From the NCBI GenBank assembly GCA_035531375.1, contig DATKSZ010000149.1, positions 903-64,902 on the forward strand: a DNA stretch of 64,000 nucleotides. Reading direction: 5' to 3'. Shown here in pieces: positions 25,951-64,000 of this stretch. This DNA is from Terriglobales bacterium. Its GTDB lineage: Bacteria; Acidobacteriota; Terriglobia; Terriglobales; SCQP01. The notes under the pieces are model-generated. The model was not told the DNA's origin. It did no database searches and saw nothing but the letters and a program-made list of their open reading frames with translations. Numbering within the stretch: the stretch's first letter is position 1; each line of letters opens with the position of its first letter. The translations under genes were made by a program, and so were the position numbers.

Positions 25951-25956
25951 ACCCCT

Positions 25957-26249
25957 GGCGGGGGCCGCGCCGCTTTGCCTGCTGGCAAAAGCGGCGCGCA
26001 AGGCTGCGTGTAATTCCGCAGGGGCGCGCCAGTGGCGCGTCTGCGCCCCCGGGAAACGAATGCGGCGCGGCCCCAGCAATCCATTAACAAAACCGCGCAG
26101 CGCCGACTTGGGGCCAGGGGCCCCCAAGCCGGCGTGAGCATGCCGCCCCGCGCCGTTACAGCGGGGCGGCTCACAAGCGGGACGCGCGCCGCACCGGCCC
26201 GGCGCTGCTACAGCCGGGCCGGGCAGGCGCGCTGGAGTCCGCGCCCACT
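25957..26249 (+). repeat. mosaic hairpin repeat, copy B (long form)
   Basis: Same module order as copy G, without the H2 hairpin. Confidence 0.9.
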
Positions 26250-26296
26250 AACTTGTAGCAAAGTATGACCTTTCGCCTCCGCCCCGCATTTTTCTC

Positions 26297-26359: not shown

Positions 26360-27009
26360 ATGCGGATGGCAAAAGACTTGCTCTCTCTCTCTCTCTCTCT
26401 CTCCTAGTTCTCGCTAGCGCCGCGCAGGCGCAGGTTCTTGCGGCGACGGGCTACATTGCCCGCGGCACAGCCACGGTCATCGGCCCGCGCGGCAGCGAGA
26501 GCGGTGCGATCACGGTCGCGGCCTGGGGCGAGGGCCACTGCAAGGTCACGATCGCCCTGGGGGGGCCGGGGGCGCGGCGCCAGTACACGGCCATCGCCAA
26601 CGGCAACCACGCCAGCATCTCGGCCCCGGCGGGAATGGCGGCGGCGGCGCCGCTGCCGCTCGGCCCGCCCGTCGGCTGTGCGCTGCTGCCGCAGGGGCTG
26701 GCCTACGACAAACTGGCCGCGGGCGGCGCGGCCAGCCTCACTGCGGATCCAGCGACGGGGCGGCCGCTGGCGCTGGTTTGGACGGCCCTTGCGCCCGGCG
26801 GCGGCGAAGCCGCAACGCTGGCCTACGGGAACTACCAGGTTTCCGGAGGGCTGAGCTACCCAGCCACGGTCACCGAGAGCGTGGCTGGCCAGACGCGGCT
26901 TGCCATCCGCTTCACCTCGATTGAAACCCATAGCCTCGCCGAGAGCGACTTCGCGCTGCCGCCGCCGCCGAAGGGCTTTCCCACCCGGACCACGGGAGGT
27001 GGGCTATGA
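26360..27009 (+). CDS. secreted protein gene interrupted by a frame shift in the (CT)11 tract (as sequenced: leader in frame 2, mature part in frame 1; first in-frame ATG only at 26635)
   Basis: See the first finding. Frame 1 is open from 26269 to 27009 with protein-like, high-GC3 translation from 26404. ATGA overlap with the RHS start. Confidence 0.6.
26381..26403 (+). repeat. (CT)11 dinucleotide microsatellite
   Basis: Perfect CTCTCTCTCTCTCTCTCTCTCTC. The only such tract seen in the window. Confidence 0.95.
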
Positions 27010-30000
27010 AGGCGCGGGTACTTGCTGGCCTCTTGCTTCTGGCACTCGCGGCGCTTCCGGCGGCGGCGCAGGTCAACACCTCGGGCTGGGGCAGCTTCCA
27101 GTCGCTGCCCGAGGGCCGCGTGGACCGCGGCGACCTCGACCTGCACCTCGAGTTCCCGATCTTCAATCGGGCCACCGTAGGGCGGGCGCAGGTGAAGGCG
27201 GTGCTGGTCTACGACAGCCAGTTTTGGCAGCCGGTGAACGGCGCCTGGGCGCCCGAGACGGGCGGAGGCTGGTGGCTGCGCACCGCCGCTGGGCATCTGA
27301 GCGAGACGACCACGGTGGACAGCGGTGCCTGCGGCTGGACCGACGGCAGCGGCACCGACGACGGCAGCGGCACCATCACCAACCACGCCTTTGCCTTCAC
27401 CGAGCCCGATGGCACGGTGGCGCCCGCGGGCAGCTACATCTCGGTCTATGCGCCCAACAGGATCCATCCCGAGGGCTACTACAACGACTGCCCGCCCTCG
27501 GACACACTGCCCATCACGACCTTCATCGGCGACGGCAAGGGCTACCGCGTGGTGATTGACAGCTCGGGCGCGGGAACGGCCTGGGACGGCGACGGCGACA
27601 ACCTGACCGACGGCCTCACCGATCCCAACGGCAACTCCGTCACCGTCTCCGCCGGGGCCCTGAACGACCCGCTGGGAACGGCGCTCACCGTCAGCGGCTC
27701 GGGAACCCCCAGCTCGCCCATCGTCTACACCTACACCGGCACGGGCGCCACCCCGGTGAGCGTCACCGAGAACTTCGAGTCGGTGTATGCCACCGGCAGC
27801 TTCGGCTGCTACCCCGGCTGGAGCGGGTACCTGAACCTGCCGGAATCCATCACCTATCCCGACAGCTCCGAGTACGTCTTCAGCTACGACTCGGCCGGCA
27901 GACTGGCCACGCTCACGCTCCCCACGGGCGGGGTGATCAGCTACAGCCAATCGCTTTCGAACAACTGCTCCTACACCACCAGCACCCTCACCCGCTCGGA
28001 GTCGCTGGATTCCGGCAAGGAATGGCTCTGGTGGAATTCCAGCGGCTCCTCCAGCGGGCAGACCACCCAGACCAGTCCGGACAACAACCTTTCCGTCTTT
28101 GACTTCGACGCCACCGGCGCGCTGACCGAGACCGACGCCTACAGCGGGCCGTCGACCGGGACCATAGAGAGCGAGACCACCATCGCCACCGGCTACAGCG
28201 GCGGCACCACCAAGACGGCGGTGACCGAGCTGTTCGGCCCAACTCCGCTCTACTCCCAGCACCAACAGACGTTCGACCCCTTCGACAACCTCACCGCCAG
28301 CAGCGACACCGACTGGGGCACAACCTCGCCTGGGGGCGCCATCCTGCGCCAGACGACGGCGGTCTACGGCACCAGCGGCGAGGCGGAGGTGCTCGCCAGC
28401 CGGACGGTGAGCGACGGCTCCGGCAACGAAGTGTCAAAGTCCACATTCTCCTACGACAGCCACGCCAATCTGCTGAGCGAGAGCGATTACGTCACCGGCA
28501 GCACATACCTCACCAAAAGCTACGCCTACAACAGCAACGGCACGGTGCACACCGCGACCGACGCCAACGGGGGGGTGACCACCTACAGCTACACCTGCGG
28601 CAGCGGGTTTTACCCCAGCAGCGTGCAGAGCGCCATCGCCCCGGTGGCCACCAGCGCCACTTGGGACTGCGCCGGCGGCGTGCAGCTAACCTCCACCGAC
28701 CCCAACGGCCAAACCACCACCACCGCCTACGACGATCCAACGCACATGTGGCGGCCGACCTCGATCACCGCGCCCGACGGCAGCCAGACCACGATCAGCT
28801 ACATCTCGCCCAACCAGGTGGAGCGGGCGCAAACCTACAATTCCGGCCACTCCACCGACGATGTGCTGACCACGCTCGACGCTCTGGGGCGTCCCGTCCT
28901 CAGCCAGCGCCGGCAATCGCCCGTCAGCGGGAGCTTTGATACGGTCGAGACTTGGTACGACGCCATGGACAGGCCGGTCCAGGCGAGCATGCCCTTCACC
29001 TCGACCGCCGGCGTCGGCGGTGGCGCCGCCTTCACCACCACCACCTACGACGAGTTCTCGCGTCCGCTGGTGGTGATCGACGGCGGCGGGGGAAAGGTGA
29101 GCTATGCCTACAGCCAGAACGACACCCTGATCACGGCCGGGCCGGCGCCGAGCGGGGAGAACACCAAGAGCAAGCAGGAGCAGTTCGACGGCTTGGGAAG
29201 GCTGCAGTCGGTGTGCGAGATCAACACGCTGGGGGGCGACGGGCCCTGCGGACAGACGGTGGCGCAGAGCGGGTATCTTACGGTCTATGCCCGCAACGCC
29301 CTGGGCCAAATCACCCAGGTCACCCAGAACGCGCAGACCACGCCCACCCAGACGCGGACTTTCAGCTTTGACCAGCTCGGCCGGCTGACGGCGGAGGCCA
29401 ACCCGGAGAGCGGGACCACCGCCTACACCTTCGACAGCGATGCGACCTGCGGGATCTCGGGAGGCGACTTGGTGAAGCGCGTGGACGCCAACGGCAACAC
29501 CACCTGCTACGCCTACGATTTGCTCCACCGGGTAACGCAGATCCGCTATCCGAGCGGCGATCCGAACCCCACGCCGGACAAGTATTTTGCCTACGACGGC
29601 GCCAGCCTGGACAACACCAGCATGGCCAACGTGGCGGGCAGGCTGGCCGAGGCCTACACCGGCACGCCGACGGCCAAGATCACCGACCTGGGCTTCAGCT
29701 ACCCCAATCCGGGCGCGGACGAAGAGGACGTCTACCAGTCCTCGCCCAACTCCGGCGGCTGGACCATCGCCATCGCCCAGCATTACGCCAACGGCGCGGT
29801 TTCGACGCTGACCTTGCCCACGGGCGTGCCGGCCATCACCTACAGCCTGGACGGCGAGGGCCGCCCGGTCGGCGCCATGGCGGGCACCGCGACGCTGGCG
29901 AAGAACGGCGTCTACTCGCCCGAGGGGCTGACCAGCCTGACCCTGGGCTCCAACGACAGCGACGGCTACCAGTACGACGCCAGTACCGGCCGCATGGAGC

Positions 30001-31631
30001 AGTACCAGTTCACGGTGGGCGGCGCGACCGACACCGGGACGCTCACTTGGAACGCCAACGGCTCGCTGGGGACGCTGGGGATCACCGACAACATCCCGGG
30101 CGCCGACGACACCCAGTCCTGCACCTACACCCACGACGACCTGGGCCGCATTGCCTCGGCGGCATGCACCGGCGGGGACAACTGGAGCCAGACCTTTTCC
30201 TACGATTCGCTGGGCAATGTACTGAAGAGCGGGACGCAATCGTTCCAGCCCAACTATGGGATCAACAACCGCATCTCGACCAACATCAACTTCACGGCCC
30301 ACTACGACAACGACGGCAATTTGCTCGACGACCCGGTGACGCCGGCCACCGGAGTCAACGCCTTCGACGCCGAGGGGCACGCGGTGACACTGGAGGGGAT
30401 CGGGGTGACGTATGACGCGCTGGGAAGGGCGGTGGAGGCGGCGGAGCCGGGCGGGACGATCGAGTTCCTGTATGGCCCGGGCGGGGGTAAACTGGCGGTG
30501 ATGAACGGGCAGACCCTGGCGGCCGCCTACATTCCGCTGCCGGGCGGGGGGACGGCGGTCTATCATGGTGCGACGCTGGCCTACTACCGGCATGCCGATT
30601 GGCTGGGCAGCTCGCGGCTGGCCTCGACCCCCGGCCGGACGCTCTATTCGGCCACCGCCTACGCGCCGTATGGGGAGCCGTACGAGGAGAGCGGGACGAT
30701 CGACCGCAATTTCACCGGCCAGAACCAGGACATCGTCGGCGGCCAGTACGACTTCCTCATGCGGGTGTACAACCCCATCCAAGGCCGTTGGTGGACGCCC
30801 GACCCCGCCGGCCTGGCGGCGGTGGACCCCAATGACCCGCAGAGCTGGAATCGCTACGCCTATGTCGGCGGCACCCCCCTGGAGGCCACCGATCCGCTCG
30901 GGCTGGACCCGTGCCCGCCGGGGAGCAGCGTGCAGTGGTGCTTTAGCGGGAGCTCGGTGCCTGGGCTGGGGCAGCAGAATACGCCGCCGGGCATGGGCAG
31001 CGGCGGCCTCGACCTGCTCATCGCTGCGCTGCAGCAGGAGCTCAGTCTCTTTTGGCCCGGCAGCGCCCAGCCTGCCATTGTCGTGCCCGGCAGCGGGAGT
31101 GGCGAGCCAACTAGCCCTGCGACGACGACTTCAGGAAAGCAAAGCAACACGCCGTGCAGCCACGGGATTGGCGTAGGCGCAATGAGTGGGGGCGCTGCCG
31201 AGGCGGGCGCTGGGGCCGCCGGCGCTGGAGTACAGGGCTCTGTCGGCGGCGGCCTGTTTTTCAACCCGCAAAATGACCTTAGCATTGGCGCGCTGGCCGC
31301 CGGCGGTGCCGTGGCCTATGCCGGGGGCGCTGTCTCCGGGGTGCCGCAGCAATACCCCAAGACTGCTCTTATCCTTGGGGCGTTCGCCGGCGCTGGCGGT
31401 GGCGTCTTCCTCACGAATGCGGGGTCAGTGTCCGAACTCGCGGGTCCATTTCTGACCCTCAGCGCGAATCTTGCGGTTTTTGGAATCAAGGGCAGCCTCC
31501 AGCTTGCCGTTGATCGCCACTGGACGGCCATGGCAACGTTTAGTCTCGGCGCCGGCCCGCCAGGGGCCGATTTTTCCGCATACACGACCGACACCGTGAC
31601 CACGGAGCCAGGGTGCTCCTGGGTGCCGTGA
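27006..31631 (+). CDS. RHS/YD-repeat polymorphic toxin with Sec leader and glycine-rich C-terminal domain
   Basis: GGGAGG Shine-Dalgarno sequence. Leader MKARVLAGLLLLALAALPAAAQ. Numerous YD repeats. RHS core end YNPIQGRWWTPDP..NRYAYVGGTPLEATDPLGL, followed by a 241-aa tail. Confidence 0.9.
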   Translation: MKARVLAGLLLLALAALPAAAQVNTSGWGSFQSLPEGRVDRGDLDLHLEFPIFNRATVGRAQVKAVLVYDSQFWQPVNGAWAPETGGGWWLRTAAGHLSETTTVDSGACGWTDGSGTDDGSGTITNHAFAFTEPDGTVAPAGSYISVYAPNRIHPEGYYNDCPPSDTLPITTFIGDGKGYRVVIDSSGAGTAWDGDGDNLTDGLTDPNGNSVTVSAGALNDPLGTALTVSGSGTPSSPIVYTYTGTGATPVSVTENFESVYATGSFGCYPGWSGYLNLPESITYPDSSEYVFSYDSAGRLATLTLPTGGVISYSQSLSNNCSYTTSTLTRSESLDSGKEWLWWNSSGSSSGQTTQTSPDNNLSVFDFDATGALTETDAYSGPSTGTIESETTIATGYSGGTTKTAVTELFGPTPLYSQHQQTFDPFDNLTASSDTDWGTTSPGGAILRQTTAVYGTSGEAEVLASRTVSDGSGNEVSKSTFSYDSHANLLSESDYVTGSTYLTKSYAYNSNGTVHTATDANGGVTTYSYTCGSGFYPSSVQSAIAPVATSATWDCAGGVQLTSTDPNGQTTTTAYDDPTHMWRPTSITAPDGSQTTISYISPNQVERAQTYNSGHSTDDVLTTLDALGRPVLSQRRQSPVSGSFDTVETWYDAMDRPVQASMPFTSTAGVGGGAAFTTTTYDEFSRPLVVIDGGGGKVSYAYSQNDTLITAGPAPSGENTKSKQEQFDGLGRLQSVCEINTLGGDGPCGQTVAQSGYLTVYARNALGQITQVTQNAQTTPTQTRTFSFDQLGRLTAEANPESGTTAYTFDSDATCGISGGDLVKRVDANGNTTCYAYDLLHRVTQIRYPSGDPNPTPDKYFAYDGASLDNTSMANVAGRLAEAYTGTPTAKITDLGFSYPNPGADEEDVYQSSPNSGGWTIAIAQHYANGAVSTLTLPTGVPAITYSLDGEGRPVGAMAGTATLAKNGVYSPEGLTSLTLGSNDSDGYQYDASTGRMEQYQFTVGGATDTGTLTWNANGSLGTLGITDNIPGADDTQSCTYTHDDLGRIASAACTGGDNWSQTFSYDSLGNVLKSGTQSFQPNYGINNRISTNINFTAHYDNDGNLLDDPVTPATGVNAFDAEGHAVTLEGIGVTYDALGRAVEAAEPGGTIEFLYGPGGGKLAVMNGQTLAAAYIPLPGGGTAVYHGATLAYYRHADWLGSSRLASTPGRTLYSATAYAPYGEPYEESGTIDRNFTGQNQDIVGGQYDFLMRVYNPIQGRWWTPDPAGLAAVDPNDPQSWNRYAYVGGTPLEATDPLGLDPCPPGSSVQWCFSGSSVPGLGQQNTPPGMGSGGLDLLIAALQQELSLFWPGSAQPAIVVPGSGSGEPTSPATTTSGKQSNTPCSHGIGVGAMSGGAAEAGAGAAGAGVQGSVGGGLFFNPQNDLSIGALAAGGAVAYAGGAVSGVPQQYPKTALILGAFAGAGGGVFLTNAGSVSELAGPFLTLSANLAVFGIKGSLQLAVDRHWTAMATFSLGAGPPGADFSAYTTDTVTTEPGCSWVP

Positions 31632-32233: not shown

Positions 32234-32384
32234 GCGCCAACGAAAAGTGGGCTCTGAACGAAAATCTGACAAGGTGCTCATTTCAAGCGGATTTCCGCAG
32301 GACAGGCCTGACCCGCAGACGGCTGGGCGTGGCAGCTGGGAAGGATGGAGCGTTCCTAAGGGGCACAGCGGTTGACCGTCCCCT

Positions 32385-32585
32385 TCGCGGGGGTCGCGCC
32401 GCTTTGCCTGTCGGCAAAATCGGCGCGAAAGGCCGCGAAATTCCGCAGGGCGGCCCGCCCCCGGGAAGCGACTTCGGCGCGGCCCCTGCGAGGCGCAGCG
32501 CCGGCTTGGGGCTCCGGGGCCCCCAAGCCGGCGTGAGCACAAGCGGGACGCGCGGCGCAGCCGCGCAGGGGCCCGCGCCCACCTT
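32385..32585 (+). repeat. mosaic hairpin repeat, copy C
   Basis: Head module (H1) plus H5 hairpin plus short tail. Confidence 0.9.
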
Positions 32586-34632: not shown

Positions 34633-34919
34633 TCGCGGCGGTCGCCCCGCTTTGCCTGCTGGCAAAATCGGCGCGAAAGCCCGAAATTCCGCAGGGGCAG
34701 ACGCGCCCGTGGCGCGTCTGCGCCCCCGGGAAACGGCGGCCCCAGCAGCCCAGCAGCGAAGCCGCGCAGCGCCGGCTTGGGGCCATGGGGCCCCCGAGTC
34801 GGCGCGAGCATGCCGCCCCGCGCCGTTGCAGCGGGGCGGCACACAAGCGGGACGCGCGGCGCACCGGCCCGGCGCTGCTCCAGCCGGGCCGGGCAGGCGC
34901 GCTGGGGCCCGCGCCCACC
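34633..34919 (+). repeat. mosaic hairpin repeat, copy D (long form)
   Basis: Its last base abuts the TAA stop of the FG-GAP gene. Confidence 0.9.
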
Positions 34920-37900
34920 TTAGTTCAGAATCGTCAGCGTCAAGTTCAGCGCCGGCAGCGAGCCGCCGGTCATGTTGGCGCCGATGGCGATGGGCACTGC
35001 CCCCGCCGGCGGCGGCGTCCCGCCCCCGCCCAGGTTCGGCGCCGCGCTGGAGCCGCAGCCCACCAGTCCGCCGCCCAGGGCGAGGCCCAGCACCACCGCC
35101 AGGGCCCAGCCGCCGCGCCGCCCGCGGCGCTTGCGCCACCCCAGCGGCAGCAGTCCCAGCAGCGCCAGCGGCCACGCCATCGCCAGGTCGAATCCGCCCG
35201 GCGGCGGCAGCCCGGCCACGGTGGCGTCCACCGTGATGGTGAGCACGGTCGAGGCCGAGTCGCCCGCGCCGGCCAAGGTTGTCGGGATGGGATTGGGCGA
35301 GAAGCCGCAGTGCACATAGGCCGGCAGCGTGCTGGGGCAGGTGAAGGTGATGGGCGCGGAGAAGCCGTTGGGCGTGGTCACGGTGAGGGTGGTGGTGACG
35401 CTCTCGCCGCCCGAGGCCGTCAGCGACGAGGGGTTGGCGCTGATCAGGTACTGCACCGTGGCGTCTTGCGGCGTGGTGACGTTGGCGCTCTCGAAGTTGC
35501 TGTCGCCCGAGTAGGAAGCGGTGATGGCGTAGGGCGTGGCGCTGGGCGCCAGCACCGGCGACAGCACCCCGGCGTTGGAGCTCAGCGCCACCGCGCCGCC
35601 GGGGATGGCAATGCCGTTGCTGTAGAAGGTGATCGTGCCCGAGGGGTTGGGCGCGTTCCCCAGCGTCGCCGTGGTCGAGACCGTGCCGGTCAAGACCAGC
35701 GGCGTGATGCTGGCGCCGCTGGCCACGCCCCCGCTCACCGCCAGCGTCAGCGTGGTCGGCGCCTTGCCCAGGGTGTAGGAAGTGGCGTCGGCGCCCTGGC
35801 TGCTTTGGAAGTTGCCGCTGGCGTCGCTGTAGCAGGCGGTGACGGTGAGGCCGCTGCCGGCCCCCACCACCACGCCGGAGACGCTGGCGGCGCCGTTCTG
35901 CACCGTGGCCGTGGCCACGTAGGCGGAGACCGAGCAGGCCGCCCCCGCCGTCCCCACGATAAAGCCCACGCTGCCCTCGGCCACCGGCGCGCTGGCGTTG
36001 TTGCTGTTCGCCACCGTGGCGCTGAAGCTCACCGGGCCGGGATAGGTGTTGGTCGCCTCGGTGAAGCTGGCGCTGACCGCGGTCGGCGCCGCCGTCACCT
36101 GCAGCGGCACGGTGCCGGCGGTGGTGCTGGCGGCGAAGCTGCCGCTGCCGCTGTAGCTGGCCGAGACCAGGTAGCTGCCCACCGGAATGGCGCCGCTGGC
36201 GCTGGCCGTGCCGCCCTGCACCGAGGCCGCCATCAGTTGCACCGGGCTGGCACAGGCCCCGGTCGCGGGACACAGGCTGAAGGTCACCGACCCGCCCGCC
36301 ACCGATCCCCCCGTCCAGGTCACCGCCGCCGTCAGCGTGCCCGGGCCGGGATAGACCGCCGTCGCCGCCAGTCCGGTGACGGTGATCGTGGTCGATGTCG
36401 CGCTGCTCGAGGCCACCCCGTTGTTGACCAGCAGCGCCGCCCCCTGGCTGGTCGAGACCAGCACGCCGGGGCTGCCCCCCACCGGCGCGGTTCCCGCCGC
36501 CGCCAGGTTCGAATCCACCCCGGCCACCGTCCCCACCGTCGGCGGCAGCAGTTGTCCCTTCACGTTTTGATAGGCGTAGGCGACGCCATTCGCCAGCGCC
36601 ACCACGTCCGGCAGCGCCGAGCCGTAGAACTTGCCGGTGGCCAGCACCGGGTCGTAGCTGACGCAGCCGGCGTAGTTGCCCCCGGCGTTGCAGTTGGGCC
36701 CGGGAATGCTGTCGCCGGCGTAGAGCGGCTGCGCCGGCTGCGGGGTGAAGCTGCCCGCCTGCCCCGCGGTGTTGAGCAGCACCTGCACCCCCTGGCTGCC
36801 CGCCACCACGAGGTCGGGCAGGCCGTCGCCGTTGATGTCGGCCGAGGCCACCGCGCTGAAGTTGGGGTAGGGCGTTCCCACCGCCTGGCTCAACAGCGTG
36901 GGGTTGGTCGGCGCCACCAGCATGCCGCCGTTGTTTTGCAAAATCCCCACCGCCGCGCCGCCCTGAGCGGCGGTGTTGCCGCTGCACAACTCGCCGCCAT
37001 CCACCAGCGCCAGGTCGGGCTGCTTGCCCTGGAAAAAGAAGTCGGCCGCCCCCGCCACCGGGTTCACCACCGGCGGCGCCACGTACACCGGGTTGGCGAA
37101 GGTGCCATCGCCCTTGCCCAGGAACACATACACCGCCCCCAGCGAATCCCCCGTGCCGTCGTTGTTGCAGTTGTTGCCGTTTTCCGGGAGCACCAGCACC
37201 AGGTCGGCCTTGCCATCGCCGTTGACGTCGAAGGCGAACATCTGCGGCTGCGCCCCCGCCCCGGGCGTGCTGGGCCGGTAGTTGTAGCCGGGATAGCCGG
37301 GGGCCGCGGAGAGGTTGTAGCTATAGGTCGGGGTGAAGGTCCCGTCGCCGTTCGCGCCCATCACCACCACCGTGTCCGCGCCAAACAGCGCCAAGTCGCT
37401 GTTGCTCGAGGGCCCGAAGTTGCCCGCCACCTCGGCATCGGCGCCGCTGTAGCTCAGGCTGGCATTGGCGACCGTGGTCACCGGCACAGTGGTGGTGGTG
37501 GGCAGCGCCCCGCTGGCGTTGGCCAGGTAGACGGTGAAGTTGGGCTCGCCCGTCGCCAAGTCGCCGCCCAGCACCGCCAAGTCGGTCTTGCCGTCGCCGT
37601 TGAAGTCGCCGGTGGCGAAGCCGGGCGGAAAGTTGTACCCATTGCGGCCGGTGCCGGGATAGAGCGTTGCCGTGCCGCCCACCGCCCCCGCCGCGTTCAG
37701 CACATAGACGTCAATCGAGCGCTCGTCGGTGAAGCTTTGGAAAATAGGAAACGAGCCGGCGTGGACGCCGGCGCCGATGACCACGTAGCCTGGGCTGGCC
37801 AGGTTGGGCGAGTAACCGCTGGCCAGCGCCTGCTCCGGCGGGCTCAGCGCCCCGCTCGCCTGCCAGGTGCCGTTGAACGTGCCCCCGCTGCCGCTGAAGT

Positions 37901-38930
37901 TGGAGTAGGAGCTGACCTCGAGGCTGTTGGACGCGTCCAGGTAGGCGAACTCGATGCTGCTGGTTCCGCTGCTGTTCAGCACCGTCAGCGCCGAGCCCAG
38001 CGGCGATCCGCCCTGCGGCACCAGCGAGACCGCCGCGAAGGTGCCGCTGCCGTCGCTCTGGAAGGCCTGGATGGCCTGGGAGGTGTTGGTCCAGAACAGC
38101 GCCGGCAGGTTGTCGAATTCCCCCGCCGCCAGCCCGCCGCTGGTCCCGTTCAGCGAGATCTGCTGGCTGGGGGCGGGGCCGAAGGTCCCGCTGCCCTGGT
38201 TGGGGAAGATGTACAGGGCGTCGAAGGAGATGGGGCCGCACACCAGCGCCAAGTCCACCCGCCCGTTGGAGGGGCTGGTGAAGCTGCCGCCCACGATGGC
38301 GCTGCAGCGGTAGCCCGTCTGCGCCGCCGGGTAGGCGGTGCCCGCCCCGCTGGGCAGGCCGCCGCCGTTGGGCGCCAGGAAAACGGTGAACGCGCCGGCG
38401 CCGTTGGGAATGGCGGCGAGGTCGCTGAAGCCGTTGCCGTCCAGGTCGGCCACCGCCAGGGCGGCGAAGCCGCCCGTCGCCGTGATGGCGCTGGCGCTCA
38501 GGCTGAAGTTGCCGCTGCCGTCGTTGGTCAGATACACAATGCCGCTGTTGGTCGCCACCGCCAAGTCGAAGGTGGTGGCGCTGCGGAAGCCGCCGCCGGC
38601 GATGGCGTTGCCCCGCACCCCCGCTCCCAGCGACACCACCGCCGTGCTGGCAAAGCTGCCGTCGGCCTGGCCCTGGAAGATATCCACCTCGTCGCCGGCG
38701 CCGTTGGGGTTCTCCAGCAGCACGGCGAAGTCGAGCAGGCCGTTGCTGGCGTTGAACACGCCGGTGGCCACCGCCTTGGGGATGGTTCCCGCCGGCGCCT
38801 CGTAGGCGGCGGCGCCGCCCAACTGCAGCGGCGTCGCGTTCTGCGCCCCCGCGGCGGCGGCGAGGAGCAGCAGCGCGCCCACCAGCCGGATCACCCTCGC
38901 GTCCACCCCACGCCGGGACAAGTGTGTCAT
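34920..38930 (-). CDS. FG-GAP/VCBS-repeat plus Ig-like-domain surface protein (1336 aa)
   Basis: Start MTHLSRRGVDARVIRLVGALLLLAAAAGA (leader). Repeats DLDGNGFSDLA, DFNGDGKTDLA, DVNGDGKADLV, DINGDGLPDLV. Then about 5 Ig-like modules and an unusual double hydrophobic C-terminus. Confidence 0.85.
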   Translation of the reverse strand: MTHLSRRGVDARVIRLVGALLLLAAAAGAQNATPLQLGGAAAYEAPAGTIPKAVATGVFNASNGLLDFAVLLENPNGAGDEVDIFQGQADGSFASTAVVSLGAGVRGNAIAGGGFRSATTFDLAVATNSGIVYLTNDGSGNFSLSASAITATGGFAALAVADLDGNGFSDLAAIPNGAGAFTVFLAPNGGGLPSGAGTAYPAAQTGYRCSAIVGGSFTSPSNGRVDLALVCGPISFDALYIFPNQGSGTFGPAPSQQISLNGTSGGLAAGEFDNLPALFWTNTSQAIQAFQSDGSGTFAAVSLVPQGGSPLGSALTVLNSSGTSSIEFAYLDASNSLEVSSYSNFSGSGGTFNGTWQASGALSPPEQALASGYSPNLASPGYVVIGAGVHAGSFPIFQSFTDERSIDVYVLNAAGAVGGTATLYPGTGRNGYNFPPGFATGDFNGDGKTDLAVLGGDLATGEPNFTVYLANASGALPTTTTVPVTTVANASLSYSGADAEVAGNFGPSSNSDLALFGADTVVVMGANGDGTFTPTYSYNLSAAPGYPGYNYRPSTPGAGAQPQMFAFDVNGDGKADLVLVLPENGNNCNNDGTGDSLGAVYVFLGKGDGTFANPVYVAPPVVNPVAGAADFFFQGKQPDLALVDGGELCSGNTAAQGGAAVGILQNNGGMLVAPTNPTLLSQAVGTPYPNFSAVASADINGDGLPDLVVAGSQGVQVLLNTAGQAGSFTPQPAQPLYAGDSIPGPNCNAGGNYAGCVSYDPVLATGKFYGSALPDVVALANGVAYAYQNVKGQLLPPTVGTVAGVDSNLAAAGTAPVGGSPGVLVSTSQGAALLVNNGVASSSATSTTITVTGLAATAVYPGPGTLTAAVTWTGGSVAGGSVTFSLCPATGACASPVQLMAASVQGGTASASGAIPVGSYLVSASYSGSGSFAASTTAGTVPLQVTAAPTAVSASFTEATNTYPGPVSFSATVANSNNASAPVAEGSVGFIVGTAGAACSVSAYVATATVQNGAASVSGVVVGAGSGLTVTACYSDASGNFQSSQGADATSYTLGKAPTTLTLAVSGGVASGASITPLVLTGTVSTTATLGNAPNPSGTITFYSNGIAIPGGAVALSSNAGVLSPVLAPSATPYAITASYSGDSNFESANVTTPQDATVQYLISANPSSLTASGGESVTTTLTVTTPNGFSAPITFTCPSTLPAYVHCGFSPNPIPTTLAGAGDSASTVLTITVDATVAGLPPPGGFDLAMAWPLALLGLLPLGWRKRRGRRGGWALAVVLGLALGGGLVGCGSSAAPNLGGGGTPPPAGAVPIAIGANMTGGSLPALNLTLTILN

Positions 38931-39000
38931 GGTAACTCTTGTCGTGAGAGAGTCTCTGCCGGGCAGTATACACCCGCGGCGGCGCGCCGGGCGGCGGTGG

Positions 39001-39780
39001 TTACGCGCCGGCGCGCGCGGCCCGGTCCGTTCGCCGCCGGCAGCGCGCCCGCAGCCGCCGCAGGTTGAGCGCAAACTCGAGATAGTCGCGCCCCCCCAGC
39101 TTGGAATTTCCATACTGCCGCTGCCCAAAGCGAATGGGCAGCTCCACCACCGGCGCGCCGCTGAGCAGCAGCTCGGTGATCAGCGACGACTGGAAGGCGT
39201 AGCCGCGGGTCGCCAGCTTGTCCACCCGGCACCCTTGCAGGCAGCGCGCCAGCGCCGCCGCGTCGAGGCAGCGGAAGCCGGAGGTGTAGTCGTAGAGGTG
39301 GGGCAGGCCGGCGAGGCGGTGGATCAGCCAGTTGCCCACCCGGCTGGTGGCGCGCCGCCGCCAGGAGAATGCCGGGGTCGCCCCCCCGGGCGCGAAGCGC
39401 GAGCCCACCACCGCCGCCACCGCCGGCCCGCAGGCCTCGATCAGCGCCGGCAGCATCGCCGGATCGTGCTGCCAGTCGCCGTCCATCTGCACCAAAAGGC
39501 TGGGCGCCAGCGTCGCCAGCGCCTGGGCGAAGCCGCGCTGATAGGCCACCCCCAGCCCCTGCTTGCGCCCGCGCACCACCTGCATCCGGGGAAACTCGCG
39601 CTGCAAGCCCTCCAACAGCGCCGCTGAGTCGTCGCCCCCGCCCGGGCCCTCGTCGTTGACCACCACCAGCCAAAGCTCGTGGCTCAAGATGCGCGCCTGC
39701 TGCGCGAAGATGGCGGGCACCAGCGTGGGCAGATGGTGCGCCTCGCAGTAGGTGGGCAGGACGACGCAGCAGCGCGGCAT
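39001..39780 (-). CDS. GT2 glycosyltransferase (polyprenyl-phosphate sugar transferase-like)
   Basis: Start MPRCCVVLPTYCE. VVNDEGPG, DGDWQHDP (DxD-type) and SGFRC motifs. Confidence 0.85.
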   Translation of the reverse strand: MPRCCVVLPTYCEAHHLPTLVPAIFAQQARILSHELWLVVVNDEGPGGGDDSAALLEGLQREFPRMQVVRGRKQGLGVAYQRGFAQALATLAPSLLVQMDGDWQHDPAMLPALIEACGPAVAAVVGSRFAPGGATPAFSWRRRATSRVGNWLIHRLAGLPHLYDYTSGFRCLDAAALARCLQGCRVDKLATRGYAFQSSLITELLLSGAPVVELPIRFGQRQYGNSKLGGRDYLEFALNLRRLRARCRRRTDRAARAGA

Positions 39781-42001: not shown

Positions 42002-43171
42002 ATGGGCGCGCCCTTCCATTGGGTCTTCCACACTCCTTTGGCCGAGCAGAGCGACGATTTCCTGCTCTTGGCGGGCACCCTGGCGCGCGACTTCCAGGCC
42101 GAGCTGAGCGCCGCCCCCGCCCCAGCGGGGCGCAGCGCCGATTTGGGGCCACGGGGCCCCCAAATCGGCGCAAGCACAAGCGGGACGCGCGCCGCAGGCG
42201 CGCTGGGGCCCGCGCCAACCATCGGCTGGGTGCTGCGCGCCGATTTTGCCGGCGACGAGATGGAGGCGGAGGAGCGCGGCCGCGCCTTTTGGCTGGAACT
42301 CCACAGCCGCTGCCTCGACGCCAACCTCGCCATGGAACTGGTCGAGGGCTTCGAGCCCGCCCAAGGCTGGCGTCCCGCCTCCGGCCTGGCCCCCGCGCCG
42401 GAAGCCTCCGCCGCCGCCCTGCCAGCGGCGGCCGCCGCGCTGGCCCCGCCCGCGCCGGCGGCGCTCGCCCGCCAGCGCCCGCCCATCCCCGCCCAGACCG
42501 TCTACGACCTGCTGCGCGCCGACGACCCCGACCTCGACCGCAATCTGGACGAGACCATCGCCTGGATCGAAGCCGCCGGCCTACCCGTCATCAACCTGCT
42601 CAGCTATCTCGACCTGCCGCTGTTTCGCGGCTACGCCGCCGAGCACCCCGACGAGCGCGACCAGAACCTCTTCTTGCACATGCTGCACACCTGGGCCTGC
42701 TTCCGCCGCTGGGGCGCGGTGGGCGCGGTGTTGCCGCCGGCGCTGGCCCAGGCCTTCGCCGACCCGCGCTACCTGCGGTTGAACACCACCCAGTTCCGCT
42801 CCCCCGCCCCCGCCCTCTGCCTGCAACTCGCCGACTGGTCCGAGCCGGTGCGCCCGGTGGCCGGCGGCGCCCCGCAATGGGCCAAGGAGATCTACCTCAC
42901 CCACCTGGACCCCCCCACCCCCGCCGACGACCGCGAGCTCACCCTGATGATCGTCAGCTACGACGAGCGCGGCGAGTTTGGCTTCATTCCCTTGGAGATC
43001 CCGCTCAGCCTGCCCGGCGTGGGCGAGTCCATCGCGGCTTTTTTCGCCCCCAGCGCCGGCGACGAGGAGCTGGGCGCCAACACCGAAGACCTGCATCGCC
43101 TCACCGTGCTGGCCGCCACCTATTGCCTCTATGCCACCGCCCGCGACCCCGCCCTCTACCTCGCCGGCTGA
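42002..43171 (+). CDS. hypothetical protein carrying an in-frame repeat-module insertion
   Basis: ATG start. Protein-like sequence on both sides of the repeat. No recognisable family. Confidence 0.55.
   Translation: MGAPFHWVFHTPLAEQSDDFLLLAGTLARDFQAELSAAPAPAGRSADLGPRGPQIGASTSGTRAAGALGPAPTIGWVLRADFAGDEMEAEERGRAFWLELHSRCLDANLAMELVEGFEPAQGWRPASGLAPAPEASAAALPAAAAALAPPAPAALARQRPPIPAQTVYDLLRADDPDLDRNLDETIAWIEAAGLPVINLLSYLDLPLFRGYAAEHPDERDQNLFLHMLHTWACFRRWGAVGAVLPPALAQAFADPRYLRLNTTQFRSPAPALCLQLADWSEPVRPVAGGAPQWAKEIYLTHLDPPTPADDRELTLMIVSYDERGEFGFIPLEIPLSLPGVGESIAAFFAPSAGDEELGANTEDLHRLTVLAATYCLYATARDPALYLAG
42120..42222 (+). repeat. mosaic repeat, H5 plus tail modules (copy E), inside a CDS
   Basis: GCGCAGCGCCGATTTGGGGCCACGGGGCCCCCAAATCGGCGC...GGGGCCCGCGCCAACC. 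Confidence 0.8.
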
Positions 43172-44522
43172 GGCCGGCGCCGCCGCGCCCGACCACGCCG
43201 CCACCGCCGGCGAAGCGCAGCGCCGGCTTGGGGCCGCGGGGCCCCCAAGCCGGCGTGAGCACAAGCGGGACGCGCGGCGCAGCCGCGCTGGGGCCCGCGC
43301 CAACCATTGGGAGGCCGCCTTCTTCGCCCTGCTCGCCGCCGCCGCCGCCGCGCTCGCCCTGTTGCGCCCCGACAAGGCGATTGATTTCCACGTCTACGTG
43401 GAGAACGCCCGCCACTACTTTCTGGCCGGCGCCGCCATGTACGGCCCCCACAGCGGCACCGGCTGGGCGGGCGGGGTGTACCGCTATCCCCCCATCTTCT
43501 TGGATCTGTTCCGCCCGCTCTCGCTGCTGCCGCTGCGGTGGGGCGCCGCGCTCTGGGCGGTGGGCAAGCTGGCCCTCGGCGGCGCCCTGGCGGTGCGCCT
43601 GCGCCGCCGCTGGCATCTGGCCAGCATCCTCCCCTTCTGGCCGGCGCTGCTGCTGGTGGCCGCTTACTTCATCCAGGAGTTACGCTACGGCAACGCCCAG
43701 TTCTATATCGTTGCCCTGGTGGTGCTCGCCTTCCTGGCCGACGATCCGCGCTGGGGCGGCTTCTGGCTGGGCTTCGCCGCCGCCCTCAAGGTCTGGCCGC
43801 TGTTCTTCTTCCCCTGCCTGGTCCCGCGCCGGCGCCTGCGCATGCTCGGCGCCGCCGTCGCCAGCGGCGTGGGCTGGACGCTGCTGCCGGTGCTCTGGCG
43901 CGGCTGGACGGCGCAGGGGCGGCTGCTCGCGCAATGGCTGGCGCAGGAGCGCTCCATCGCCGCCACCAGCGCCGCCCGCGGCGAGCTCTGGTACCCCGGC
44001 CAGTCGCTGCACGACGTCATGGCCCGCTACCTCGGCGTGTTGAACTACTCCCGCCTCGCCGACGCCCGCTACGTGCAGGTGGCCTGGGCCCACTGCGCCC
44101 CCGCCACGGTCGAGCGCCTGTGGTGGGCCGTGGTCGCGGTCTTGCTGGTGGCGATGTTTGGGTGGCTGTGGCGTGCCCAGGGCAGCGAGGACGGGGTGGT
44201 GGCGCTGTTGTTCTGCGGCGTGGTGGTGTTCGAGCCCCACGTCCACCGCCTCATCCTCGAGACCCTGCTGTGGTCGGCGCTGTGGCTGGCCTCCGAGCGG
44301 GCGCAGGGCCGCCTCGCCGGCTGGCGCCGCGCCCTGTTCTGGCTGGCGGTGGCGGCGGCGGTGGCGCAGCCCTTGGTGCCCGGCGCCGCCCGCCAGCGCT
44401 GGCTGCAGGTCTACGGCGTGGACTTCTTTTTCGTGGTGGTGCCGCTCACCGCCGTAGTGGCGCGGCAGGCCTGGCTAGGGCATATCGCCGATAGGCAGGC
44501 GCGCGCGGCGGCGGCAGACTGA
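43131..44522 (+). CDS. polytopic membrane glycosyltransferase (DUF2029/GT87-like); start uncertain
   Basis: About 10 TM helices; YRYPPIF and NAQFY motifs. No ATG/GTG/TTG between repeat F and the first TM helix. The nearest in-frame ATG is 43131, upstream of the repeat. Confidence 0.6.
   Translation: MPPPATPPSTSPAEAGAAAPDHAATAGEAQRRLGAAGPPSRREHKRDARRSRAGARANHWEAAFFALLAAAAAALALLRPDKAIDFHVYVENARHYFLAGAAMYGPHSGTGWAGGVYRYPPIFLDLFRPLSLLPLRWGAALWAVGKLALGGALAVRLRRRWHLASILPFWPALLLVAAYFIQELRYGNAQFYIVALVVLAFLADDPRWGGFWLGFAAALKVWPLFFFPCLVPRRRLRMLGAAVASGVGWTLLPVLWRGWTAQGRLLAQWLAQERSIAATSAARGELWYPGQSLHDVMARYLGVLNYSRLADARYVQVAWAHCAPATVERLWWAVVAVLLVAMFGWLWRAQGSEDGVVALLFCGVVVFEPHVHRLILETLLWSALWLASERAQGRLAGWRRALFWLAVAAAVAQPLVPGAARQRWLQVYGVDFFFVVVPLTAVVARQAWLGHIADRQARAAAAD
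43215..43306 (+). repeat. mosaic repeat, H5 plus tail modules (copy F)
   Basis: Near-identical to the 3' half of copy C. Confidence 0.85.
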
Positions 44523-47162: not shown

Positions 47163-47496
47163 TCGCGGGGGTCGCGCCGCTTTGCCTGCTGGCAAAATCG
47201 GCGCGAAAGGCTGCGAACCTGGGTCCCCTGAGCCCGCCTCGGGTTCTGGGGTGGTCGTAATTCCGCAGGCGCAGACGCGCCAGTGGCGCGTCTGCGCCCC
47301 CGGGAAGCGAATTCGGCGCGGCCCCCCTGGCAGTGAAGCAGCGCAGCGCCGACTTGGGGCCATGGGGCCCCCGAGTCGGCGCGAGCATGCCGCCCCGCGC
47401 ATCTACAGCGGGGCGGCTCACAAGCGGGACGCGCGCCGCACCGGCCCGGCGCGGCTACAGCCGGGCCGGGCCGGCGCGCTGGGGCCCGCGCCCACC
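47163..47496 (+). repeat. mosaic hairpin repeat, copy G (longest, all modules)
   Basis: H1, H2, H3, H5, H6, outer tail hairpin with nested H8, then GGGGCCCGCGCCCACC. Confidence 0.9.
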
Positions 47497-47533
47497 AAAG
47501 TGTCTGCGGCCCGCCTGGGCCGCGGGAGGATCC

Positions 47534-52508: not shown

Positions 52509-52537
52509 CCCTCCCGGGCCGCCGCGGCCCGGGAGGG
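52509..52537 (+). terminator. hairpin after pal (13-bp perfect stem, no U-run)
   Basis: CCCTCCCGGGCCG-CCG-CGGCCCGGGAGGG. Confidence 0.4.
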
Positions 52538-53482: not shown

Positions 53483-53515
53483 CGCCCTCCCAACCCAGCC
53501 CCGCCGGCCGCGGTG

Positions 53516-53556
53516 GCACAGCCCGTCTTGGCTGTGCAGGCGCCAGCTTGGCTGGC
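53516..53556. terminator. two adjacent hairpins between convergent genes
   Basis: GCACAGCC-CGTCTT-GGCTGTGC and GCCAGC-TTG-GCTGGC. No U-run. Confidence 0.35.
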
Positions 53557-54607: not shown

Positions 54608-54654
54608 CGTGCGATAGCCAAACACGATGGCTCTATTATAGTCCCCTCGCCGCC

Positions 54655-54773
54655 GCGCGAGCATGCCGCCCCGCGCTGTTACAGCGGGGCGGCTCACAAG
54701 CGGGCCGCGCGCCGCACCGGCCTGGCGCTTGCTACAGCCGGGCCGGGCAGGCGCGCTGGGGCCCGCGCCCACC
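54655..54773 (+). repeat. mosaic repeat, H6 plus nested tail modules (copy H)
   Basis: GAGCATGCCGCCCCGCG...GGGGCCCGCGCCCACC. Lies between two minus-strand genes, yet in plus orientation. Confidence 0.85.
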
Positions 54774-54794
54774 AAGGCGCGCCCGCGCCCGTCT

Positions 54795-63834: not shown

Positions 63835-64000
63835 TCGCGGGGGTCGCGCCGCTTTGCCAGCTGGCAAAACCGGCGCGAAAGGCTGCGAACCGGGGTCCCC
63901 AGAACCCGCTTCGGGTTCTGGGGTGGTCGTAATTCCGCAGGCGCAGACGCGCCAGTGGCGCGTCTGCGCCCCCGGGAAGCGAATTCGGCGCGGCCCCAGC
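63835..64000 (+). repeat. mosaic hairpin repeat, copy I (truncated by window end)
   Basis: H1, H2 and H3 modules nearly identical to copy G. Confidence 0.9.

Follow-up and report, generated by a model that had tools for sequence, protein, structure and literature searches.

Compensatory change across the stem has already been described for the hairpins of REPINs (PMC3116915), and the features of the IS200/IS605 family have been set out (PMC6006769). In Acidobacteria and Planctomycetes, "atypical" hairpins have been found next to class 3 TnpA_Y1, with ~600 copies in Solibacter usitatus (PMC6006769), and the acidobacterial TIRYTs have TIR families of their own with the motif GGGGWSAS (PMC3733652). 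These acidobacterial Y1-associated "atypical" repeats have been noted before but not characterised. Here a repeat built of hairpins is described from a soil acidobacterium of the Terriglobales (Acidobacteriota, ~71% G+C). The DNA analysed, called the window below, is a stretch of 64,000 nucleotides (GenBank assembly GCA_035531375.1, contig DATKSZ010000149.1, positions 903 to 64,902 of the forward strand), which has a G+C content of ~71% and a negative GC skew throughout; by exact matches of its proteins it belongs to a Terriglobales MAG. The hairpin under study, H3, lies at 47269-47297 in the fullest copy of the repeat, copy G. With moderate confidence, we regard it as a module of a non-autonomous mobile DNA of the REP/BIME or IS200/IS605-PATE kind, which would be handled as folded single-stranded DNA (ssDNA). 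The hairpin is probably not a new structured RNA, and its folding matters most likely as ssDNA during mobilisation, not as a conserved RNA gene.

The original prediction, made from the window alone, had set GCGCAGACGCGCC-AGT-GGCGCGTCTGCGC (47269-47297, copy G) beside GGGCGGGTGCC-AGT-GGCACCCGCCC (1386-1410, copy A) and had claimed that all differences between the two stems are mirrored. Direct reading bears this out: both hairpins stand at these positions, both stems are perfect (11 bp in copy A), and after alignment on the AGT loop six stem positions differ, 6/6 of them mirrored on the opposite arm. The stem of copy G is really 14 bp long and spans 47268-47298, 13 bp lying within 47269-47297. 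The window has eight perfect hairpins with a stem of at least 11 bp and a loop of 3-6 nt, where 30 first-order Markov simulations gave 0-4 (mean ~0.6); five of the eight belong to copies of one mosaic repeat.

This repeat is 100-340 nt long and gene-less. Conserved motifs and BLAST with the fullest copy locate nine copies in the window, 9/9 on the + strand, and at nine per 64 kb several hundred would be expected genome-wide. The full form (336 nt) starts with the 5' end TCGCGGGGG, H1 and an optional H2. Its middle consists of AATTCCGCAGG, H3, CCCCGGGAAGCGAATT, CGGCGCGGCCCC, a variable linker, H5 and an optional H6, and its 3' part of the near-invariant unpaired linker GAGC/ACAAGCGGGAC, the tail hairpin with an optional H7 extension, and GGGGCCCGCGCC(C/A)ACCA(A/T). 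H1, H5 and the tail have a common basal stem, GCGCCG...CGGCGC. The lengths are discrete (200 nt, the commonest, then 219, 233, 242, 275, ~290, ~305 and 335-341 nt), and the 3' unit, which comprises H5 and the tail (~99 nt), is also found alone and in head-to-tail arrays. Such arrays of 2-4 units occur at the metagenome loci L086 (3831-4398), L074 (1961-2343) and L156 (9737-9926), where the upstream units end in GCGCCAAG/GGAAG and not in CCAACCAT. The loop of H1 (e.g., 47186-47189 in the window) reads NGCN, with T, C or G about equally often as the fourth base; that of H5 (47356-47359) is 3-4 nt long and has more than 12 forms, so that the loops are hypervariable among copies and the stems conserved.

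Further copies came from a pattern scan of metagenome contigs, which gave 113 loci (~1.06 Mb) from three JGI samples, with ~214 instances of the repeat at ~160-210 distinct sites, told apart by their flanks. A pattern scan of a genome collection with the flanks of H3 and a variable gap returned L021 as the only real relative among the matches listed, the rest being chance, and the conserved linker had no match in viral contigs. Two alignments were analysed, one of 81 H3 copies and one of 91 copies of H5 plus tail, each with 500 shuffles. In the first, 92.6% of cells are paired as standard pairs and there are six double-change pairs versus 2.0 ± 0.7 in the shuffles; in the second, 98.2% of cells are paired and there are seven such pairs versus 2.3 ± 0.8. 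In both cases 0/500 shuffles were as high. When the partners in the second alignment were slid by 1-3 columns, only 31-45% of cells paired. RNAalifold finds the same helices independently, plus GCGGG/CCCGC. H2 exists in at least four mirrored stem versions (CCCCAGAACCCG/CGGGTTCTGGGG, CCCCAGAGCCCG/CGGGCTCTGGGG, CCCCGGGACCCGC/GCGGGTCCCGGGG and CCCCAAGCCGC/GCGGCTTGGGG), and H1 is near-invariant and uninformative for covariation. In H2, H3, H5 and the tail alike, mirrored changes are in excess of the controls, shuffled and slid. The covariation proposed earlier therefore survives comparison with the null on aligned copies, and most stems across these copies are paired.

Other parts of the original prediction need qualification. 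The three co-varying versions of H5 were found in the copies at 32495, 43217, 42132 and 47340, but not in copy D (34760s), which reads GCCGGC.../...GAGTCGGC with two wobbles in place of the GCCGAC assigned to it; copy B (26100s), which had been overlooked, has an A.C mismatch in H5. The alternation of the tail between GCGCGCC/GGCGCGC and GCGCGGC/GCCGCGC is well supported, with 40 versus 39 distinct rows and just 2 unpaired. The statement that structure rather than sequence is conserved was too strong, since column identity is 93-95% and the most invariant segment is the unpaired linker GAGCACAAGCGGGAC. The comparison of copies A and G, finally, proved to be a special case. The H3 of copy G is the common type in the 81 aligned copies, whereas the allele of copy A occurs at 1/154 H3 sites and in 0/158 fetched loci, and neither of its arms occurs again in the window or in any fetched locus; 5/6 of the H3 double-change pairs are owed to copy A alone. 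It is a one-off allele within otherwise consensus flanks, and its six mirrored changes are best read as a block replacement, not as stepwise compensation. Among the 154 H3 sites, ~85 carry GCAGACGCGCC, ~8 a C to A change with a mirrored G to T, and one GGGCGGGTGCC, and 60 (39%) hold just the 9-nt filler GCGGCCCGC between the anchors.

Selection on a folded nucleic acid, as had been proposed, is upheld insofar as the stems are kept paired by mirrored changes beyond the controls, but a large part of the covariation reflects linkage. The 3' unit falls into two subfamilies that differ at eight linked positions. The differences include two full compensatory pairs (G:C versus A:T in H5, C:G versus G:C in the tail), one G:C versus G.T and some unpaired sites, and none of them breaks a stem. 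Variants shared by at least three copies comprise seven compensated Watson-Crick types, which cover 131 copies. Private variants (~79 types) have the opposite character: ~72 are one-sided (18 A.C, 15 G.T and 39 other mismatches) versus 2 compensated. Because the private variants are mostly one-sided, inserted copies appear to decay, and pairing appears to be enforced in the multiplying lineages and not locus by locus.

Copies gain and lose entire modules or swap them with one another. In the orthologous copies of loci L084 and L121, whose flanks are 98-100% identical, the whole H2, H6 and H7 modules differ, together with five substitutions within H5. L156 is the syntenic locus of a sister species, with genes 84-88% identical to those of the window at the DNA level; there, the site of copy G holds, between the same flanks on both sides, a 207-nt form of the alpha type, i.e., of the other subfamily. 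Copies of the element are 95-97% identical between the two sister species, well above the value for the genes, which suggests ongoing activity or gene conversion among copies. The repeat is thus active or homogenised in two sister species. Private mirrored doubles are also seen in several single copies, at H5 pairs 6-38, 7-37 and 8-36, and could stem from template switching between the arms or from source copies outside the sample.

These observations raise the question of whether DNA mechanics might suffice with no selection for folding, that is, template-switch correction of one arm by the other in quasi-palindromes combined with gene conversion of modules. The module differences between orthologous copies, the exchange of subfamily at the site of copy G, the greater likeness of copies than of genes across species, the block replacement in copy A and the private mirrored doubles are all in keeping with it, and at H5 pair 2 the discordant G.T and A.C combinations number 7 versus 8, as recombinants would. 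However, the ~72 one-sided private types stay uncorrected, conversion explains how paired variants are inherited and not how they first arose, and the avoidance of stem breaks in the subfamily differences implies a filter. As a full account we consider this a tentative possibility, well short of probable, and it is best seen as a contributor to the mobile-element explanation and not as an alternative to it.

The mobility of the repeat is apparent from its insertion sites. In L121 the sequence CTGCAGC|AGGATA is empty, and L084 holds TCGCGGGGG...CCAACCAT between those bases; in two paralogous segments within L088, CCCA|TAGTT is empty in one, and its twin carries TCGCGGGGG...CCCACCAA. In both pairs the junctions are unambiguous, and the insertion is exact, with neither target-site duplication nor terminal inverted repeats. 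A classical MITE was accordingly rejected: TCGCGGGGG... and ...CCCACCAA, the two ends, do not form inverted repeats, and the target is not duplicated. Over 159 distinct 5' flanks, C makes up 93% at -4, 61% at -3 and 47% at -1, which places the 5' end TCGCG on the 3' side of a C-rich tetranucleotide; at the opposite end of the element the boundary is sharp and reads ...CC(C/A)ACCA(A/T). L156 has no insertion where copies D, E and F stand in the window. Copy E lies in frame inside a conserved hypothetical-protein gene (42002-43171; Terriglobales, no Pfam domain), to which it adds ~35-38 residues near the N-terminus: the protein of the window has 389 amino acids versus ~330-370 in most homologues, and the closest homologues have ~350 and lack the element-encoded stretch. 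Two homologues of 389 amino acids (P0131 and P0140) have unrelated insertions further along. An integron attC array was also considered and rejected, since the copies in the window are scattered among housekeeping genes (dcw, RND efflux) with no adjacent integrase; L021 looks array-like, with three copies ~1 kb apart and small genes between them.

The orientation of the repeat is coupled to the strand of replication and not to transcription. Of the pairs of adjacent copies, 73 share a strand and 3 do not. At loci with an absolute GC skew of at least 0.1 (elements masked), 33 copies are on the C-rich strand versus 5 on the G-rich strand, or 20 versus 4 by locus (p = 0.0015). Flanking genes are co-oriented with the element in 73/152 cases; among gene contexts, convergent is commonest (28) and divergent rarest (13). 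The dcw cell-wall cluster, which is usually co-oriented with replication, is on the - strand of the window. From this and from the GC skew, the - strand is taken as the leading strand, so that the + strand of the element is lagging-strand sequence. At the places where neighbouring copies are oppositely oriented there is no switch of GC skew, and a REPtron was rejected there, as the genes between them, judged from translations, are ordinary (cupredoxin-like and glycosidase-like). For comparison, the transposase genes of IS200/IS605 elements tend toward the leading strand, and IS91 shows a lagging bias, against fork movement (PMC3971601).

Such a polarity would also be expected of a polar DNA site domesticated by the host and acting as double-stranded or cruciform DNA, either for gyrase or nucleoid-protein binding, as in BIMEs, or in the manner of Chi or KOPS. 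The strong replication-strand bias, the high and fairly even density of ~1 copy per 7 kb in the window and the near-invariance of the unpaired motifs ACAAGCGGGAC and GGGGCCCGCGCC are in keeping with this idea. The 5' end of the - strand, (A/T)TGGTGGG, resembles the core of E. coli Chi, TGGTGG, a likeness that serves only as a lead. Yet the copies are polymorphic between close strains and species, their module content varies greatly, they decay by one-sided change, and one of them lies inside a gene. A domesticated site is therefore unlikely as the explanation, and domestication would not exclude mobility.

As RNA, either strand of the repeat is predicted to fold far more stably than shuffled sequence. 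The predicted RNA fold of copy G is -237.4 kcal/mol for the + strand (z = -8.1) and -228.7 for the - strand (z = -7.0). The three abundant non-Watson-Crick pairs, i.e., in the closing helix of the H1 module (65% of copies), at H5 pair 4-40 (about half) and at H5 pair 13-31 (~20%), are all G.T on the + strand, with no high-frequency A.C, and low-frequency G.T and A.C changes are balanced. The G.T pattern, together with the target motif at the 5' end, favours the + strand as the strand read; under an IS608-type model, such a choice is hard to reconcile with the replication polarity.

A better-folding + strand with all frequent G.U pairs is also what a multicopy structured RNA would show, whether small or cis-acting, if it were transcribed from the + strand and its hairpins were kept for RNA function. 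The covariation beyond controls and the hypervariable loops on conserved stems agree with this, and in the GCGGG/CCCGC helix 7/7 one-sided changes are G.U, with 0 pair-breaking. Rfam, however, reports only a tRNA in the window at gathering threshold, and for copy G, at E-values up to 10, only noise of at most 20 bits. The sequence 5' of the element is not conserved, which speaks against a shared external promoter (judged from flank conservation, with no promoter scan), and direct reading shows no T-run terminator after the hairpins. Given the 73/152 co-orientation with genes, read-through transcripts would carry about half of the copies in antisense, and the + strand runs head-on to replication. 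Many copies do without certain modules, H3 included, most private mutations break a stem, one copy sits inside an open reading frame, and exact insertion polymorphism marks mobile DNA. There is thus only a small chance that the repeat is such an RNA. The original prediction had left open a structured RNA or an ssDNA substrate; the ssDNA half fits the remaining evidence best, and nothing supports an RNA gene.

A mobiliser was sought in the same data. All distances from a 5' end to a 3' end are at most 341 nt except for four, in L101 (1790), L087 (3515), L054 (4544) and L086 (567), and a Y1 enzyme is encoded in 0/4 of these spans. The spans of L087 and L054 represent separate partial copies, and that of L086 is one copy with a tandemly repeated 3' unit. 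In L101, an IS110-family element lies inside the 3' arm of H5 of a copy (GGGGCCCC|IS|CGAGTCGGC). This element (~447-1976, - strand, ~1.5 kb) has DEDD_Tnp_IS110 and Transposase_20 in two frames, which indicates a frameshift, and its left non-coding end contains a target-like sequence, GCCATGGGGCCCCCTG. Insertion of IS110-family elements into REPs is reported, e.g., for ISPpu9 (PMC8450116). IS110 was ruled out as mobiliser, as it interrupts a copy and the target specificity of the repeat is only ~4 nt. A group II intron was likewise excluded, with no intron domains in Rfam and an element that is too small.

A single Y1 gene occurs in the data, in L021 (2188-2715), directly upstream of a copy of the repeat. 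It encodes a RAYT (NCBIfam REP_Tyr_transpos, 89 bits; Pfam Y1_Tnp, 5.9e-10) and is flanked by a canonical REP, GGTGG-CACAGCCAATCTTGGCTGTG (GTGG-CACAGCC), which differs from the hairpin repeat and has 28 matches, in both orientations and in tandem arrays. As it is bounded by another REP, this RAYT belongs to another repeat family. The canonical REP reads GGCCAC(G/A)GTGG-CACAGCCAATCYTGGCTGTG-CG, has a GTGG foot and forms 78-nt tandem arrays; its sites include 53514-53536 in the window, 2660-2690 and 2938-2965 in L021, and 6600-6860 in L118. A 66% RAYT homologue, on a 2.9-kb contig (L155) that holds no copy of the hairpin repeat, is followed by a related GTGG REP, the stem of which is changed on both arms (CACAGGCA/TGCCTGTG).

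The presence of an IS110-family element, the IS200/IS605-like geometry of the ends with no target duplication, and the compact, conserved multi-helix fold of the 3' unit at the right end of the element might suggest a relic or guide-RNA scaffold left by a transposon of the RNA-guided kind, be it the bridge RNA of IS110 or the omega-RNA from the end of a TnpB element (IS200/IS605). Neither tnpB nor iscB, however, was found beside copies in the cases examined, and Rfam, which includes models of such RNAs, has no match. The interrupted copy makes the IS110 element a parasite of the repeat and not its source, and a target specificity of ~4 nt is all that the repeat has. This origin is very unlikely.

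The explanation that we favour, a non-autonomous element mobilised as folded ssDNA, would operate as follows. A trans-acting HUH-type enzyme (IS200/IS605, RAYT or IS91-like) would cut and join the folded ssDNA, probably the + strand, which it would recognise by the shape of the hairpins and a small number of unpaired bases. Mirrored substitutions could then arise through selection at the level of the element, since a source copy would propagate only with its hairpins intact, and also because the two arms of a hairpin would be inherited or converted together. In addition, intra-hairpin template switching may carry some changes from one arm to the other. After insertion, the copies would decay through one-sided mutations.

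Several observations weigh against this explanation. Neither an autonomous copy nor a cognate transposase was found in ~1.1 Mb, and the resident RAYT was rejected as mobiliser, since it pairs with a different REP family. The private mirrored doubles in H5 are not easily explained by selection during propagation alone. The strand preference among neighbouring copies (73 versus 3) and the head-to-tail arrangement of tandem 3' units depart from REPINs and BIMEs, and there are no inverted doublets. If the + strand is the active top strand, it is on the leading-strand template, a bias opposite to that of IS200/IS605 (PMC3971601). A further reading is an as yet undescribed class of ssDNA-mobilised elements with separately exchangeable hairpin cassettes and reversed IS200/IS605 polarity (the active strand being the leading-strand template or the nascent lagging strand), moved by an enzyme other than the resident RAYT and the known IS200 TnpAs; this, or else a multicopy structured RNA of the + strand, we consider rather improbable.

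The individual copies in the window show the range of forms, all on the + strand. Copy G (47163-47498) is the fullest, with 336 nt: H1, H2, H3, the long linker, H5, H6, the conserved linker ACAAGCGGGAC and the tail with H7, between the ends TCGCGGGGG (5') and GGGGCCCGCGCCCACCAA (3'). Copy A (1318-1500, 183 nt) has H1, the variant H3 and a short tail and is without H2, H5, H6 and H7. Ten nucleotides upstream of it, outside the repeat, lies a perfect G+C-rich hairpin (1280-1307), GCGGGGTGGACC-TTCC-GGTCCACCCCGC, which is followed by a T-run and looks like an intrinsic terminator; another perfect G+C-rich hairpin outside the repeat, CCCTCCCGGGCCG-CCG-CGGCCCGGGAGGG, stands at a gene junction (52509-52537). 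Copy B (25956-26251) has lost part of the 5' arm of its H3 (GGCGCGCC-AGT-GGCGCGTCTGCGC), in addition to having the mismatch in H5. A (TC)n microsatellite of at least 11 units (26378-26400) lies ~130 nt downstream of copy B and ~600 nt upstream of a gene for an RHS-repeat protein of 1541 amino acids (27006-31631). Copy C (32375-32585) belongs to the 200-nt class, has the filler GCGGCCCGC in place of H3 and is situated between convergent genes; in both H5 (GGCTT/AAGCC) and the tail (GCGCGGC/GCCGCGC) it is of the alpha type.

Copy D (34633-34921) has its H3 at 34697-34721 with the loop CGT, an H5 with G.T and T.G wobbles, and both H6 and H7. It abuts the 3' end of an open reading frame of 1402 amino acids on the - strand (34920-39128), which is without a counterpart in L156; there, at this position, only 12 nt or less separate a gene with a FecR domain from the GT2 gene that comes after it. 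Copy E (~42124-42222, the 5' boundary being approximate) is a 3' unit only, with the H5 version GATTT/AAATC and the tail. Copy F (~43212-43307), also a 3' unit only, lies between the stop codon of the gene for the 389-residue protein and a GT87 glycosyltransferase gene. Public gene calls run the GT87 reading frame upstream through this copy (43131-43380 in the window; 5598 in L153), and the true start of the gene is probably downstream of 43308. A 5'-deleted copy (~54647-54775) retains H6, the conserved linker, H7 with the tail and the 3' end CCCACCAA; the genes on both sides of it are on the - strand. The last copy (63835-64000) is truncated by the end of the window; its H1 is present, its H2 (63897-63923) is perfect, and its H3 (63941-63969) has the same sequence as in copy G.

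The mirrored changes themselves are expected for REP-like mobile palindromes and are already known for that class. What makes this family a natural experiment in stem maintenance is the combination of ~200 copies, two subfamilies and two sister species with a clear pattern, in which shared variants are compensated, private ones are not, and whole hairpins are swapped among copies. The cassette-like exchange of modules, the reversed replication polarity and the mobiliser merit further work. A replication-strand polarity opposite to that of IS200/IS605 and a missing mobiliser are the points that specialists would want explained, and an answer might widen what is known of HUH single-strand transposition in this phylum, the Acidobacteria. 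The repeats also matter for annotation, as they create long spurious open reading frames at 71% G+C and sit inside called genes (copies E and F).

Among known systems, the REP/BIME/REPIN group offers one of the nearest parallels. Here, as there, G+C-rich palindromes occur in high copy number, mostly extragenic, in mosaic composites and most commonly between convergent genes, and they are a target of the IS110 family, share their genomes with a RAYT and show compensatory changes in their hairpins (PMC3116915). In contrast, the unit is 100-340 nt long with up to seven hairpins, versus 20-40 nt in REPs. The unpaired GT[AG]G foot is on no + strand hairpin of the repeat; the 5' terminus of the - strand reads (A/T)T-GGTGG (62%), GGTTGG (29%) or GGTAGG (7%), followed by GCGCG...CGCGCC. 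The arrangement of a REPtron, a RAYT flanked by its own repeat, was not seen in the ~1.1 Mb searched, the RAYT of L021 having another REP.

The likeness to the IS200/IS605-PATE group concerns above all the ends: terminal inverted repeats and target duplication are both absent, insertion is exact and orientation is coupled to replication. The hairpins are subterminal, H1 starting at nucleotide 10 and the tail hairpin ending ~20 nt from the 3' end, and a target tetranucleotide abuts one end (C 93%, C 61%, N, C 47%, 5' of TCGCG). By analogy, the GGGG just 5' of the foot of H1 could be a guide sequence. On the other side, the lagging-template feature of this family would hold only if the - strand were active, no tnpA/tnpB partner was seen in ~1.1 Mb, and the repeat has many optional internal hairpins and tandem 3' units. 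Since it differs from REPINs in two respects (inverted doublets and a cognate RAYT) and from IS200/IS605 in two others (strand polarity and a TnpA partner), the repeat is placed in neither family.

The repeat resembles the IS91/ISCR/Helitron-like elements, compared by description, in its asymmetric ends with neither inverted repeats nor duplication, its tetranucleotide target at one end, the hairpin near its 3' end and its tandem 3' units, and the bias of IS91 against the fork is similar; it differs in that no Y2 transposase was seen. Copy E, in frame within a protein gene, recalls the Rickettsia palindromic elements and intragenic REPs, but the sequence is unrelated to the Rickettsia elements and most copies here are intergenic. 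With regard to the acidobacterial Y1-linked repeats, the reported CnGA foot is inconsistent here, and no class 3 TnpA_Y1, TIRYT or Y2 transposase gene was seen beside a copy in ~1.1 Mb. As far as a comparison by description goes, however, these repeats are of the same phylum and have hundreds of non-canonical hairpin copies, and the 5' end of the present repeat, GGGGTCGC, is one base from the TIR motif GGGGWSAS of the TIRYTs.

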